DNA of 54,110 bases from a virus. Its lineage: Duplodnaviria > Caudoviricetes. Positions within the stretch are counted from its first letter, which is position 1. Each line of letters opens with the position of its first letter. The notes under the pieces were generated by a model. The model saw only the letters and a list, made by a program, of their open reading frames with translations. It was not told the DNA's origin and ran no database searches. The DNA lies in the IMG/VR virus record IMGVR_UViG_3300042484_002120, positions 1 to 54,110 of that record; one strand, given 5' to 3'. Made by a program: the position numbers and the translations under genes. Positions 29,838 to 38,358 of the stretch are shown here, one piece after another.

Positions 29838-31070
29838 ATGCCCATAAACGTAAACAACCTTGAAATGCCTTTCTTAAACTCTCGTGTAGAGATGAAGAAC
29901 GAGGACTATTCCCGTGAGGACTTTTTTAACATGGCTCGGGATGTGGCAGACAAGTCATGGATTGCCCGTAGCGCCGTAGGGTACAACATTTTTCATCATG
30001 ACGATATTTCTGCAATCATGAGAGATAGACGCTGGCATAGTGCTTTAGGCATTTTGGCTGATTTGAACCCATTCACAACACCTGATTTTAAACGCCGCCG
30101 TAAAACATCAATTATTGCAATTGACGGTGAGGAACATAATCGTTTAAAGCGCCTGCTTACCCCTCACTTCAGCCCATCTATCGCAGATGACCTTCGCCCA
30201 TTTATGCGTGATGTAGTTAATGAACTAGTAGATAAATTTATTGGAAATGGAGAAGCGGATATCGCAGCAGATATTTCACGGCAATATCCAGTAAGAATAA
30301 TTTGCCACCTCCTTGGCATACCACACGATGACTTGGATAGATTTAGCAAATGGGCAGTTGACATGTTGAGAAATTTTGACATGAACTATGAAAAATCTAC
30401 AGAATCAATCCTTCAGTCCCAAAAAGAGATGGATGAATATGTAGAAGGATTCATTGAACTTCGCAGAGCAAACCCACAAGATGACCTCATCTCCATGTTA
30501 GTCAACGCTGAAGATAATGGTGATGTTCTTTCTAATGAAGAAATAATGACACTAATTGAAGCGCTAATGATTGCAGGGATTGACACAACACAGAACCAGT
30601 TAAGTACTGCCGTTTCTATACTTATAGATAACCCAACAGCATGGTCACTTCTTTCCGAAGACCCCAGTAGTGCCAAATTTATCGTGGAGGAACTGATGCG
30701 TATGAACGGTTCAGTATCCAATACGGGGAGAATTGCCGCAGAGGACATTGAATACAGGGGAGTATTATTTCCTAAAGGAACAATAATGTTCGTCAATCTG
30801 GCTGTAGCCAACTACGACATGTCTACATTTGTGAACCCTGACGAGTTTATTCATAATCGTAGAGAACTTGAATCAATGCATATGTCTTTTGGGATGGGGC
30901 TTCACTACTGCCTTGGGGCACCAATTGCTCGTGCCGAAATACAAGAAGCGCTTATCATTATTGCAAACAGGCTAAAAAACATTCAGCGCAATGGTGAAAC
31001 TATTTATAAAGACGAAAACTCTGCCGTGTACGGCCCTGTTTCGCTCCCGGTAACATTTTCTAAATACTGA
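29838..31070 (+). CDS. Cytochrome P450
   Basis: HNRLKR, I-helix AGIDTT, EELMR (ExxR) and heme motif FGMGLHYCLG; 410 aa, full length. Confidence 0.95.
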   Translation: MPINVNNLEMPFLNSRVEMKNEDYSREDFFNMARDVADKSWIARSAVGYNIFHHDDISAIMRDRRWHSALGILADLNPFTTPDFKRRRKTSIIAIDGEEHNRLKRLLTPHFSPSIADDLRPFMRDVVNELVDKFIGNGEADIAADISRQYPVRIICHLLGIPHDDLDRFSKWAVDMLRNFDMNYEKSTESILQSQKEMDEYVEGFIELRRANPQDDLISMLVNAEDNGDVLSNEEIMTLIEALMIAGIDTTQNQLSTAVSILIDNPTAWSLLSEDPSSAKFIVEELMRMNGSVSNTGRIAAEDIEYRGVLFPKGTIMFVNLAVANYDMSTFVNPDEFIHNRRELESMHMSFGMGLHYCLGAPIARAEIQEALIIIANRLKNIQRNGETIYKDENSAVYGPVSLPVTFSKY

Positions 31071-31141
31071 AGTTCTTCCTCTGACATCACTATGCCAACC
31101 TGAAGAAGCATGGCTTTGAGCTTCTCTAAACGTTCATCCAT
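31004..31141 (-). CDS. Possible 45-aa hypothetical protein (not in ORF track)
   Basis: MDERLEKLKAMLLQVGIVMSEEELQYLEN..., TAATG-coupled to the upstream gene; overlaps the P450 3' end antisense. Confidence 0.35.
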   Translation of the reverse strand: MDERLEKLKAMLLQVGIVMSEEELQYLENVTGSETGPYTAEFSSL

Positions 31142-31809
31142 TATAGTTCGTCCATAATCTGCTCAAATGACTTTTCTGGGTAGTCAATTGTCAATTGGGT
31201 AATCCAGTCTTTAAATTCTTGAGACGCTTCAGGGTATGGATGAGGAATCGACTTATAGTTTTCTTCACCCTTTAAGAACTTGGCCAAATGCATATCGGGC
31301 AATGCGTCTATTTCTTCAAGAATCGATTGTGGAATATCGAGAGTTTCAAAAACCAGTTTAGAATATGCGGCCATTGGGTGGTCTGAATTGAATGGCTCTT
31401 CTGCCATGAATGACCATTCGCGCATGTTTTTGAACAATTGAAATATTGACTTGGCGCCCCACATTGTTGACGGCGTGGGGTCAGTCTCCGAGTCATGCCA
31501 TTCATTCATCTCTAGGTAACCAAAAAGGAATTTAGGGTGTAAAACTATTGGAAATGCAAACTTGGCAACTTTAAGTACTTCCAGCTTGACTTCAGAAACT
31601 ACTGTTTTGTCATACCAAGAATGGGCGTGGTTAGCATATTCTGTTCCTTCTGATACGAGAAGGCCTGTGTATGTAAGATTGTCGCACCGGTCTAAACTTG
31701 AGTTTTTGCCGGTGTTTGTTCCCTCTTGTAAAAATTCACTTTTTAATAAAATAAAAACACCCTTTAAAGAAGGGTCCGAACTGCGGAGAAGTATTTCTGG
31801 TTCAAGCAT
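31141..31809 (-). CDS. Hypothetical protein
   Basis: 222 aa, AGGAG RBS, overlaps the upstream gene; no family recognised. Confidence 0.7.
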   Translation of the reverse strand: MLEPEILLRSSDPSLKGVFILLKSEFLQEGTNTGKNSSLDRCDNLTYTGLLVSEGTEYANHAHSWYDKTVVSEVKLEVLKVAKFAFPIVLHPKFLFGYLEMNEWHDSETDPTPSTMWGAKSIFQLFKNMREWSFMAEEPFNSDHPMAAYSKLVFETLDIPQSILEEIDALPDMHLAKFLKGEENYKSIPHPYPEASQEFKDWITQLTIDYPEKSFEQIMDEL

Positions 31810-32041
31810 TTTCTAGCTCCTGAATTTTATTTACTATAACAATCATTTGTTTACATCTTTTTTCTAATTGACCACTGTGCGACAATATAGGAGAATTGGG
31901 AATTGCCTCAAAAGAAGAGTAGTCAAAAACATCAGGGTCTAAACCGCAGCGAAAACAAAGTTTATACACCTCAACTGATATCGCTTTTTTCATTTCATAA
32001 AGCGCAGAAATCTTACTTTCTACTTCGCTGAATTCAGACAT
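31802..32041 (-). CDS. Small helical hypothetical protein (paralog of 35346..35576)
   Basis: VYKLCFRCGLDPDVFD...KIQEL resembles IYTQLIRMGLDPDAYD...KIAEL. Confidence 0.65.
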   Translation of the reverse strand: MSEFSEVESKISALYEMKKAISVEVYKLCFRCGLDPDVFDYSSFEAIPNSPILSHSGQLEKRCKQMIVIVNKIQELENA

Positions 32042-37592: not shown

Positions 37593-37593
37593 A

Positions 37594-38357
37594 TCACACC
37601 TGTGACATATAGTAGACGGTTCCTGGGTTTTGTCCAGTTACATCAGTGGTTATTCCAGGAGCCAATACTTCAGCAGAAGAAACGATGAGAATTACTCCTC
37701 CGCCTGCAGGGGCAGTTCCCGGCGCTTTGATGTAAGCCGTGCCTGACGCTGGTCCAGAAATGTAGCGAGCAGCAATGATAACTATTCCGCCCCCAACTTG
37801 ACCTAGTCCGCCAGCACCTCCACGCAAAAAGGTAGGACCACCTGCAGCAGTGACGGAATAACCAGTAATTGCTTGTCGTGGAATTCTGAAGTAGTTAGCG
37901 CCACCCATTGATGAGTGGGGAACAGTTGCCAAGACGCCAGTCGCGGCTCCACCTAAAGAATGAAGTACTGGTTCCAGTATTCCTCCGCCCTGGGCGATAG
38001 AGCCAGCGGTTGCAAAACCGGTCGTGTAACCAATCGTTGAGTTGGTTCCCATGAACTTTAATGTGCCCTTAACGAAGATTCTGTATCCGTCGGGCTGTAG
38101 GCGGCAACTCGTATTGATGGTCAAATCGTTGAAGTACATATCGCGCGTCATTGTATAGACACTCGCAGACGGAGCCATGCTTAGGACTGTCGTGGTTCCG
38201 TCAAGTACAGCATCGCCGTCAGCGCCTGTTCCATAAACAGAGTCAACGGATTCGTTAAAGTAGGCATTCCAGACTGTTCCATCAAATTGCCAACTCTTAG
38301 AGCCGACAGTAAATATTTGATTTACATACGGAGAAGCAGGAAAAGTAATCGCTGGCA

Positions 38358-38358
<1 letters not shown>
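37594..38358 (-). CDS. Gly-rich fibre-associated protein
   Basis: [10 protein letters not shown] module; YGTGADGD...MYFNDLTI...GYRIFVKGTL shared with the next gene. Confidence 0.7.

Follow-up and report, generated by a model that had tools for sequence, protein, structure and literature searches.

Halogenase, prolyl 4-hydroxylase-like oxygenase and dUTPase-fold genes linked to a histidine-rich fibre-type gene in a lake-water phage lineage

Results

The locus and its genes

The window analysed here is the whole of the IMG/VR record IMGVR_UViG_3300042484_002120, 54,110 bases of viral DNA with a completeness of 34% (CheckV). Among its fibre genes lies a compact cassette in which the gene for a histidine-rich fibre-type protein is followed on the minus strand by genes for a putative prolyl 4-hydroxylase (P4H)-like 2-oxoglutarate (2OG)-Fe(II) oxygenase, a putative flavin-dependent halogenase and a protein with a predicted dUTPase fold, with a cytochrome P450 gene on the plus strand at the far end. 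The His-rich gene, the halogenase gene and the dUTPase-fold gene are never apart in one abundant lake-phage lineage, and the possibility that the enzymes tailor the His-rich protein is weighed below. The genes are listed by window coordinates (strand in brackets, lengths in amino acids, aa; ORF, open reading frame; nt, nucleotides).

38504-41905 (-): collagen-like tail-fibre protein, 1133 aa, heading the run; Pfam Collagen (133.9 bits) and tail/tail-fibre PHROGs (e.g. phrog_819, 8.8e-69)
37594-38358 (-): Gly-rich fibre-type protein, 254 aa; paralogous to the N-terminal region of the His-rich protein
35586-37592 (-): His-rich, Gly-rich, collagen-like protein, 668 aa; Pfam Collagen and tail-fibre PHROGs
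35346-35576 (-): small helical protein, 76 aa; paralogue of the 79-aa ORF
34939-35349 (-): 136-aa ORF from the ORF list, overlapping both neighbours by 4 nt
34358-34942 (-): putative P4H-like 2OG-Fe(II) oxygenase, 194 aa; PF13640
32833-34341 (-): putative flavin-dependent halogenase, 502 aa; PF04820
32049-32846 (-): protein with a predicted dUTPase fold and a long C-terminal helix, 265 aa; phrog_7084 and structural model
31802-32041 (-): small helical protein, 79 aa; paralogue of the 76-aa ORF
31141-31809 (-): 222-aa ORF, confined to this viral lineage
29838-31070 (+): cytochrome P450, 410 aa, intact, an optional element; PF00067
29534-29821 (-): predicted membrane protein, 95 aa, closing the block in relatives, as judged from conservation among them

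Every gene reported by a first-pass annotation of this DNA was found in its place, and the P450, halogenase and 2OG oxygenase are intact with their catalytic motifs retained. The minus-strand run is tightly packed, its junctions ranging from a 14-nt overlap to a 145-nt gap with several overlaps of 4-14 nt, and it converges tail to tail with the plus-strand P450 gene, 70 nt lying between them. The surroundings are structural, the cassette being flanked by proteins matching collagen-like, fn3 and tail-fibre PHROG families, and no flavin reductase or ferredoxin is visible (no Flavin_Reduct, Fer2 or Fer4_15 match in the 54-kb, 34% complete record), both again in agreement with the annotation. Numbers of predicted promoters (24 sites compared with 20.5 +/- 5.7 in shuffled controls) and terminators (10 compared with 13.8 +/- 4.0) are not above the controls and have no bearing on operon structure.

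The source is probably an uncultured freshwater (lake-water) myovirus with a host in the Actinomycetota. Near-identical DNA is present in 24 sequencing runs labelled lake-water, freshwater or metagenome, none of the 24 being on record as RNA, and a megablast of the region against phage records gave no matches. The window also encodes a tail sheath, a tail tube, a baseplate J-like protein, a WhiB-like regulator and many collagen-like, fn3 and C1q fibre proteins. An actinobacterial host is pointed to by the WhiB-like protein and by the actinophage-like sheath, which is ~35% identical to the sheaths of Gordonia, Arthrobacter and Brevibacterium myophages. The WhiB-like gene stands in a row with genes for a metallophosphoesterase and an HslV/proteasome-like peptidase (51025-53604, plus strand).

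The halogenase and the P4H-like oxygenase

The product of gene 32833-34341 matches Pfam Trp_halogenase (PF04820) with 338.7 bits (cut-off 21), and its solved matches by phmmer include 6frl (2.3e-54), PrnA (1.4e-49), 5uao (1.5e-42) and VirX1 (PDB code 6qgm, 3.9e-41). We take 6frl to be an enzyme acting on free indole and 5uao to be MibH. The segments GSGTAG at residue 17, K82, WMWEIP at 264 and EPLE at 334 (E334/E337) align with PrnA, in which the catalytic lysine is K79, and all four are invariant across 14 relatives. The score, the GxGxxG and WxWxIP motifs, the catalytic lysine and the conserved glutamate together identify the protein, at the level of sequence, as a flavin-dependent halogenase. 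An alternative identity as a QhpG/LodB-type flavoprotein was rejected; the NCBIfam score of 25 bits is far below the cut-off of 240 and is read as reflecting a shared flavin fold only.

The product of gene 34358-34942 matches 2OG-FeII_Oxy_3 (PF13640) with 51.4 bits (cut-off 27). Its best solved matches, 3itq and 5hv0 (3.4e-7), carry the molecule names prolyl 4-hydroxylase and procollagen-proline dioxygenase, and the next, 5c5t (2.5e-5), is also named prolyl 4-hydroxylase; the first two presumably come from Bacillus anthracis and the third from Paramecium bursaria Chlorella virus 1. The iron triad (H123-x-D125 and H176) and the 2OG-binding lysine (K186) align with 3itq, and the presence of the domain, the HxD...H arrangement and this lysine suggests a 2OG-Fe(II) oxygenase of the prolyl 4-hydroxylase type. 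Collagen-like proteins are encoded near the window enzyme, a point in common with these collagen-type prolyl 4-hydroxylases; the match to them spans only residues 99-193 of the window enzyme, and identity is low. Nucleic-acid dioxygenases are absent among its PDB matches.

The His-rich protein and its paralogue

The His-rich protein contains 62 histidines in 668 residues with a maximum of 18 in a 40-aa stretch, a density of which no other ORF of at least 60 aa in the window reaches even 8 per 40 aa. The histidines are concentrated in a core at residues 344-564 (58 of 221 residues, 26%), which is followed by (GGA)n. With 33.1 bits against Pfam Collagen (cut-off 27.2), matches to tail-fibre PHROGs down to 6.8e-16, triple-helix repeats and a context of fibre genes, the protein has the attributes of a collagen-like phage fibre, as far as its sequence can tell. 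It carries nine Gly-x-Pro-Gly sites, the large fibres of the window having mostly Gly-Pro-x.

Residues 39-104 of the adjacent 254-aa protein match residues 16-69 of the His-rich protein (39% identity, E 4e-12). By this alignment the two genes encode neighbouring, paralogous fibre-type proteins, one of which is interrupted by collagen-like repeats and a His-rich loop of ~220 aa. The model of the 254-aa protein (predicted local distance difference test, pLDDT, 67.9; predicted template modelling score, pTM, 0.72) gives weak matches of beta-solenoid type, the best being a bactofilin (Z 7.5) followed by adhesins and tailspikes, none with Z >= 8, and Foldseek returned no match against the PDB at E <= 1e-3. 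Matches in BFVD (E 5e-8 to 3e-7) are giant-virus collagen-like proteins and one uncultured phage protein. The 254-aa protein belongs to no Pfam family and has no match in 50,697 phage records. A solved phage adhesin with a polyglycine fold does not appear in the PDB match lists of its model, the presence of such a fold still being possible, and neither paralogue matches Pfam Gly_rich_2 (PF21722).

The His-rich core is kept in all 40 unique homologues of at least 400 aa (median 200 aa, 23% His), and its sequence drifts freely among them while the His-richness persists. The first-pass annotation had named one segment of the core as an example of the substrate, a choice that the homologues do not bear out; HWWHA is present in only 5 of the 40, and tryptophan is absent from 7 of the 40 cores. 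HNDGPHGG occurs in 16 of 40, and tyrosine and proline are present in all 40.

Elsewhere in the window, a fibre gene at 12335-14023 (plus strand) combines collagen repeats with a C1q domain (28.4 bits, cut-off 23.7). Immediately behind the gene for a 287-aa member of Pfam Gly_rich_2 (22121-22984, 59.5 bits) comes one for a GT1 glycosyltransferase (PF00534) that shares ~41% identity with its counterparts in Synechococcus phages S-CAM7 and ACG-2014f, the two forming a second pair of fibre tip and modifying enzyme in the same fibre block (21025-22984, minus strand).

Co-occurrence of the genes in related contigs

Searches of IMG/VR yielded 2 loci with the P450, 18 with the 265-aa gene and 56 with the 254-aa gene; three further loci from the 254-aa search matched only the generic N-terminal 30-46 residues and were excluded. 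With loci on the same contig merged, a homologue of the His-rich N-domain is present in 65 distinct contigs, of which 42 have at least 6.5 kb downstream and are evaluable. In these 42 the His-rich gene is accompanied by the halogenase in 42, the dUTPase-fold gene in 42, the P4H in 40, the 222-aa gene in 31 and the P450 in 11. The picture is the same for the 30 contigs ascertained through the 254-aa gene alone (halogenase 30, dUTPase-fold gene 30, P4H 28, P450 7). The co-occurrence with the His-rich gene that the first-pass annotation expected is therefore seen for the halogenase, the dUTPase-fold gene and the P4H, whereas the P450 segregates independently.

The gene set is retained where the gene order has changed (L066-L069), and variant islands add 2OG oxygenases or an FkbM-type methyltransferase at the same place. 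One contig (L047:136-5838) has a second, diverged enzyme set upstream of the fibre genes, with a P4H, a halogenase and a dUTPase-fold protein of 34, 46 and 32% identity, along with another two 2OG oxygenases and an ORF whose methyltransferase-like match is weak and below the cut-off. The two contigs without a P4H have the fewest prolines in the His-rich core (2 and 1 compared with 5-25 in the others); because these contigs are closely related, this is in effect a single event. P4H homologues remain in L011, L015, L077 and L078, where the His-rich protein lacks a run of collagen-like triplets, a further difference from the solved P4Hs considered above. Breakpoints of recombination are found on either side of the His-rich gene. 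In L007 the stretch from the His-rich N-domain through the halogenase is 95-98% identical to the window, with the 254-aa gene at 83% and the P450 at 37%.

Extra ORFs without a Pfam family occur in two of the loci, one of 371 aa between the P4H and halogenase genes (L063:13208-14323) and one of 226 aa in a P4H-less variant (L058:12723-13403).

The dUTPase-fold protein

The 265-aa protein matches phrog_7084 and gives no Pfam match at E <= 10 by hmmscan; a six-frame search for DUF6065 (PF19541) was likewise empty, and the DUF6065 model matches none of 30 close relatives at E <= 1. A search with the family profile collects 1,686 cluster representatives at E <= 1e-3. Five of a sample of 25 of these profile relatives match DUF6065 at E <= 1e-3 (above the cut-off in one case), and the Pfam dUTPase cut-off is passed by one of the 25; DUF6065 is recorded on 11% of the members of the top Atlas cluster. 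The label DUF6065-like given by the first-pass annotation accordingly holds by transitivity only, because the protein's own sequence is without a match and some of its profile relatives have one.

The model of the protein, built on 30 relatives (pLDDT 76.7), shows a dUTPase fold with a long C-terminal helix. Foldseek gave 55 matches in the PDB at E <= 1e-3, those listed being dUTPases, and the top 22 rows from VIA-align are dUTPases, dCTP deaminases or viral proteins with Z from 6.1 to 10.4, led by 3h6x (Z 10.4, root mean square deviation 2.9, 119 residues aligned). On this model the protein is assigned the dUTPase fold. Motifs 3 and 4 of dUTPases line up and are partly kept in the one alignment made at the sequence level, in which the first Asp of the 'IDSDY' stretch (motif 3), which we take to be the catalytic Asp of dUTPases, is replaced by His. 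The protein is probably not a dUTPase. Pfam dUTPase does not match it, and the best of the 30 relatives reaches E 0.017. C56 and C112 are invariant.

The P450

The P450 matches PF00067 with 102.3 bits (cut-off 22.8) and keeps the Cys-ligand loop (FGMGLHYCLG at 351), the ExxR motif (ELMR at 285) and the I-helix motif (AGIDTT at 246). Its solved matches are headed by 3wvs (8.2e-60) and mycinamicin hydroxylase/epoxidase (~4e-57), with PksS of polyketide biosynthesis and erythromycin hydroxylases also present by name. It has no match in 50,697 phage records and no PHROG family. Neither the NCBIfam model ApyO, which belongs to ribosomally synthesized and post-translationally modified peptides (RiPPs; 51.5 bits, cut-off 525), nor the best NCBIfam model, the cyclodipeptide-synthase-associated P450_cycloAA_1 (181.4 bits, cut-off 500), is reached, and all curated subfamily models score far below their cut-offs. 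The protein is 44-48% identical to P450s of metagenome-assembled genomes of Actinomycetota, the named relatives lying at 46-48% and one being labelled Ilumatobacter. It resembles the class I P450s of Actinomycetota at this level of identity and differs from them in being encoded by a virus, with no Fer2/Fer4_15 ferredoxin match in the window.

The starts of the P450 gene and the divergent membrane-protein gene are only 16 nt apart (29821-29838), so the P450 looks like an inverted insert in a minus-strand operon. In relatives the slot between the 222-aa and membrane-protein genes holds P450s 84, 52, 41 or 36% identical to that of the window, on either strand, or is empty. A FastTree run on 53 of 130 sequences places the P450s of the slot in at least two deep clades, a wording limited to that minimum because the run carries a long-branch warning. 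By sequence comparison the P450 is related to those of actinobacteria; it is an optional addition that lies outside the core cassette.

Small ORFs and the membrane protein

The 76-aa and 79-aa ORFs, which follow the His-rich gene and the dUTPase-fold gene, respectively, are paralogous and align over a shared central G.DPD.(F/Y)D motif; neither belongs to a known family, and the 76-aa ORF has no Pfam match. The 136-aa ORF was detected by tblastn in 25 of the 42 evaluable relatives. The 222-aa ORF has 208 relatives, none with a Pfam domain on record, and an Atlas search with it gave nothing above 0.81. Profiles of the 76/79-aa, 136-aa and 222-aa families have no match in four cyanophage loci (L023-L026) and no credible match among PDB sequences. 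Designed ankyrin-repeat proteins, the sole PDB matches of the small ORFs, were rejected, no stretch passing on its own.

Neither a Pfam family nor any phage record matches the 95-aa predicted membrane protein. Its gene is nearly always the last of the enzyme island, being detected in 36 of the 42 evaluable contigs, and some of the six loci without it end before its place. Its sequence is 70-95% identical in relatives whose enzymes are ~50-60% identical.

Comparison with other phages

The combination of 2OG oxygenases, halogenases and a dUTPase-fold protein is already known from cyanophage Syn9, and viral halogenases are known as well. Iyer, Abhiman, de Souza, and Aravind (2010, Nucleic Acids Research, PMC2938197), in the passages drawn on here, describe the Syn9 cluster as ten dioxygenases, two Trp halogenases and a dUTPase-fold protein in which a cysteine is conserved. 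The Syn9 genes run in the order fibre-type genes, two halogenases, dUTPase-fold homologue (gp43), small ORF and 2OG oxygenases, and in P-TIM40 the same halogenase pair is likewise followed by a dUTPase-fold homologue. The profile of the window dUTPase-fold family matches Syn9 gp43 at 1.4e-15 and the P-TIM40 ORF at 4.2e-13. The window thus shares with the Syn9/Syn10-type neighbourhood the same trio, the invariant cysteines (C56 and C112 in the window) and a position directly behind fibre-type genes. The differences are that the window lineage is not T4-like, having an actinophage-like sheath and WhiB, that it has one halogenase and one P4H-like oxygenase compared with ten dioxygenases, that its upstream fibre-type proteins are not of the Gly_rich_2 family and include a long His-rich loop, and that a P450 can join.

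The context of the halogenase was inspected in 10 T4-like phages, six of them judged from the record annotation only. Tandem Gly-rich proteins of fibre-tip type (21-35% Gly) precede the halogenase in Syn9, S-SZBM1 and P-TIM40, separated from it by a single small gene; the S-SRM01 halogenase immediately precedes a protein with 19% Gly. Four of these proteins were scanned; Syn9 gp38 and P-TIM40 gp44 score above the Pfam cut-off for Gly_rich_2, and Syn9 gp36 and the S-SRM01 protein do not. The parallel between cyanophages and window in the pairing of fibre and halogenase genes appears from these comparisons to be one of kind, not of descent. A scan of four cyanophage genomes for an HHHH-codon pattern, which was not frame-aware, performed no better than a reversed control and was discarded. 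About 4.4 kb downstream of its halogenase, Synechococcus phage S-H38 has an ORF of 95 aa (L023:11814-12101) that is 29.5% His, seems to carry a signal peptide and overlaps no annotated coding sequence.

The window halogenase and VirX1 of cyanophage Syn10 (PDB code 6qgm) belong to the same Pfam family, are both viral and keep the catalytic lysine and WxWxIP, whereas the Syn9/Syn10 halogenases are only ~27% identical to the window enzyme (tblastn). Extracts of a review describe VirX1 as trimeric, its active site being large, accessible and able to accommodate bulky substrates, and as halogenating many free aromatic compounds in vitro, and give neither a natural substrate nor a biosynthetic cluster. 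Phages of aquatic habitats commonly carry genes for halogenases and 2OG oxygenases; in the same kind of extract, a tryptophan halogenase is counted in 20 and a 2OG oxygenase in 76 of 153 cyanophages. The literature excerpts drawn on here offer only guesses for the substrates of phage halogenases and 2OG oxygenases, namely host metabolites, DNA repair and secondary metabolites. Literature searches returned no paper mentioning DUF6065, none linking a halogenase to a histidine-rich phage fibre and none combining prolyl 4-hydroxylase, collagen-like and phage tail fiber; a proteomics paper on post-translational modification in marine phages mentions neither hydroxylation nor halogenation.

Discussion

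Our preferred reading, to which we give a probability of roughly 0.4, is that the His-rich protein is tailored by the enzymes, with other fibres perhaps also among their targets. Fibre-protein tailoring is on the whole a reasonable but unproven interpretation, and it makes the His-rich fibre-type protein a concrete, equally unproven, candidate substrate of viral halogenases. The enzymes would be made together with the late fibre genes and would have the His-rich fibre-type protein, and perhaps the collagen-like fibres nearby, as their targets. The P4H would hydroxylate prolines in Gly-x-Pro-Gly and xPH contexts, the halogenase, using flavin reduced by the host, would halogenate Tyr, Trp or His of the exposed loop, and the dUTPase-fold protein would be a non-catalytic partner or scaffold; through such modifications the fibre may be tuned in its metal binding, its stability or its contact with receptors. 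The jaws of marine worms, which contain halogenated, metal-binding His-rich structural proteins, provide an analogy to a fibre tailored in this way. The full version, in which the virus both halogenates and hydroxylates the His/Tyr-rich loop of its own receptor-binding fibre with the help of a dUTPase-fold adaptor, is in our estimate unlikely.

Tailoring of the His-rich protein is favoured because the genes are tightly packed, co-occur in 42 contigs and are kept as a set despite a change in order, and because the His-richness of the core outlasts its sequence, the P4H-less contigs are the poorest in proline and nine Gly-x-Pro-Gly sites are present. It is favoured further by the names of the solved relatives of the P4H, by the acceptance of bulky substrates by VirX1, by the adjacency of halogenases and Gly-rich fibre-tip-type genes in Syn9, S-SZBM1, P-TIM40 and S-SRM01, by the dUTPase-fold homologue that follows the halogenases in Syn9 and P-TIM40, and by the variant islands that add 2OG oxygenases and methyltransferases at the same place.

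Several observations weigh against it. The His-rich cores, compared as sequences, have no obvious conserved target residue. All 42 contigs represent one syntenic lineage, so their co-occurrence may reflect descent only. Recombination can, judging from the identities along the contigs, separate the partners of the cassette; in L008 the 254-aa gene and the His-rich N-domain are 96% identical to those of the window, with the P4H, halogenase and dUTPase-fold genes at only 73-76%. The Syn9 and P-TIM40 clusters are without the His-rich gene of the window, the cyanophage Gly-rich proteins compare with the window pair at an hhalign probability of 0.7%, and the hidden Markov model of the 254-aa family has no match in the cyanophage loci. 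We know of no member of the Trp-halogenase family that acts on a full-size protein.

The first-pass annotation had proposed a RiPP-like tailoring set acting on a virion protein. The linkage of the core enzymes to the His-rich gene agrees with that interpretation; the parts assigned to the P450 and to the HWWHA segment, and the RiPP label, are not supported. 'RiPP-like' is not apt because the candidate substrate is a 668-aa structural-type protein without leader logic; Pfam, NCBIfam and PDB-profile scans of the cassette ORFs gave no short precursor, leader, recognition element, leader peptidase or RiPP-specific Pfam/NCBIfam family, a new type still being possible. MibH-type RiPP halogenases (5uao) are of the same halogenase family as the window enzyme and share with it the idea of a ribosomal product as substrate. 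They differ in that the window has no such precursor elements, and the window halogenase is no closer to 5uao than to enzymes with free substrates.

Among the alternatives the one that fares best, though we hold it to be somewhat unlikely, is that the enzymes form an island in a hypervariable fibre region that tailors small molecules or short peptides, yielding secondary metabolites or changing host metabolites in infected cells, and that the His-rich protein is a mere neighbour. Iyer et al. (PMC2938197), in the passages available, read the Syn9 cluster as one of secondary-metabolite synthesis, the sole interpretation of the trio in print, which also counts against fibre tailoring, as does the position of the halogenase in 6 of the 10 T4-like phages, where by annotation it lies among metabolic, tRNA, terminase or hypothetical genes and not beside fibre genes. 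The variable content of the island (methyltransferases, extra 2OG oxygenases, P450) is as in natural-product clusters, the best solved matches of the P450 bear names such as mycinamicin hydroxylase/epoxidase, PksS of polyketide biosynthesis and erythromycin hydroxylases, and VirX1 is active on many free aromatics according to the review extracts. The best solved match of the halogenase, 6frl, is presumably a free-indole enzyme. Against such an island, no nonribosomal peptide synthetase, polyketide synthase, cyclodipeptide synthase or ATP-grasp protein turned up among the window proteins scanned, and the solved relatives of the P4H-like enzyme are named prolyl 4-hydroxylases. The His-rich gene moreover has both the halogenase gene and the dUTPase-fold gene with it in every contig (42/42), and halogenases recur behind Gly-rich fibre-tip genes in unrelated phages.

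It is distinctly improbable, in our judgement, that the enzymes modify other proteins, either Gly-Pro-x collagen-like fibres or the host envelope, with the His-rich loop serving metal or receptor binding. Further collagen-like fibre genes number at least five in the window, the four that were tallied having 12-39 Gly-Pro-x sites, and the P4H is kept in the four contigs whose His-rich protein has no collagen-like triplet run. The passages of Iyer et al. (PMC2938197) also propose collagen-like/tail-collar proteins as substrates of co-encoded dioxygenases in other bacterial operons. What this alternative does not account for is that the halogenase and the dUTPase-fold gene track the His-rich gene and not the large variable fibres.

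Cross-linking or oxidation by the P450 of His, Trp or Tyr in the HHWNPHWWHAYF segment, in the manner of P450s from RiPP pathways, had been put forward in the first-pass annotation. The P450 is intact, and its slot is occupied, in either orientation, by P450s from at least two deep clades, which suggests that a P450 has been selected for there repeatedly; the segregation data nevertheless weaken the idea, the P450 being present in only 11 of 42 relatives, the motif occurring in 5 of 40 homologues and L008 keeping the HHWNPHWWHAYW motif without any P450. With scores far short of the RiPP model ApyO (51.5 compared with 525 bits) and of the best NCBIfam model (181 compared with 500), and with ordinary P450s of Actinomycetota genomes as the named relatives at 46-48%, such a role is very unlikely. 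Equally remote is a role of the cassette in modifying nucleotides or the DNA of the phage (base hydroxylation or halogenation, for instance), with a nucleotide-binding dUTPase-fold protein: the predicted fold is shared with dUTPases and dCTP deaminases, motifs 3 and 4 survive in part and 1 of 25 relatives passes the dUTPase cut-off, but a His stands opposite the first Asp of 'IDSDY', the 2OG enzyme resembles P4Hs and has no nucleic-acid dioxygenase among its PDB matches, and a location inside fibre genes misfits a role in DNA metabolism.

The lineage described here supplies one named, expressible candidate substrate adjoining the enzymes. Should the fibre be unmodified, the island is a further hot spot of accessory genes in the fibre region. 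In the full version set out above, in which the loop is both halogenated and hydroxylated, viral halogenases would have a natural substrate for the first time, and the Trp-halogenase family its first substrate that is a full-size protein. If the fibre is modified, phages would possess, in post-translational halogenation of a virion protein, a novel means of varying or hardening their adhesins, the dUTPase-fold/DUF6065 family would gain a role, and protein-accepting halogenases would be added to the biocatalysis toolbox.

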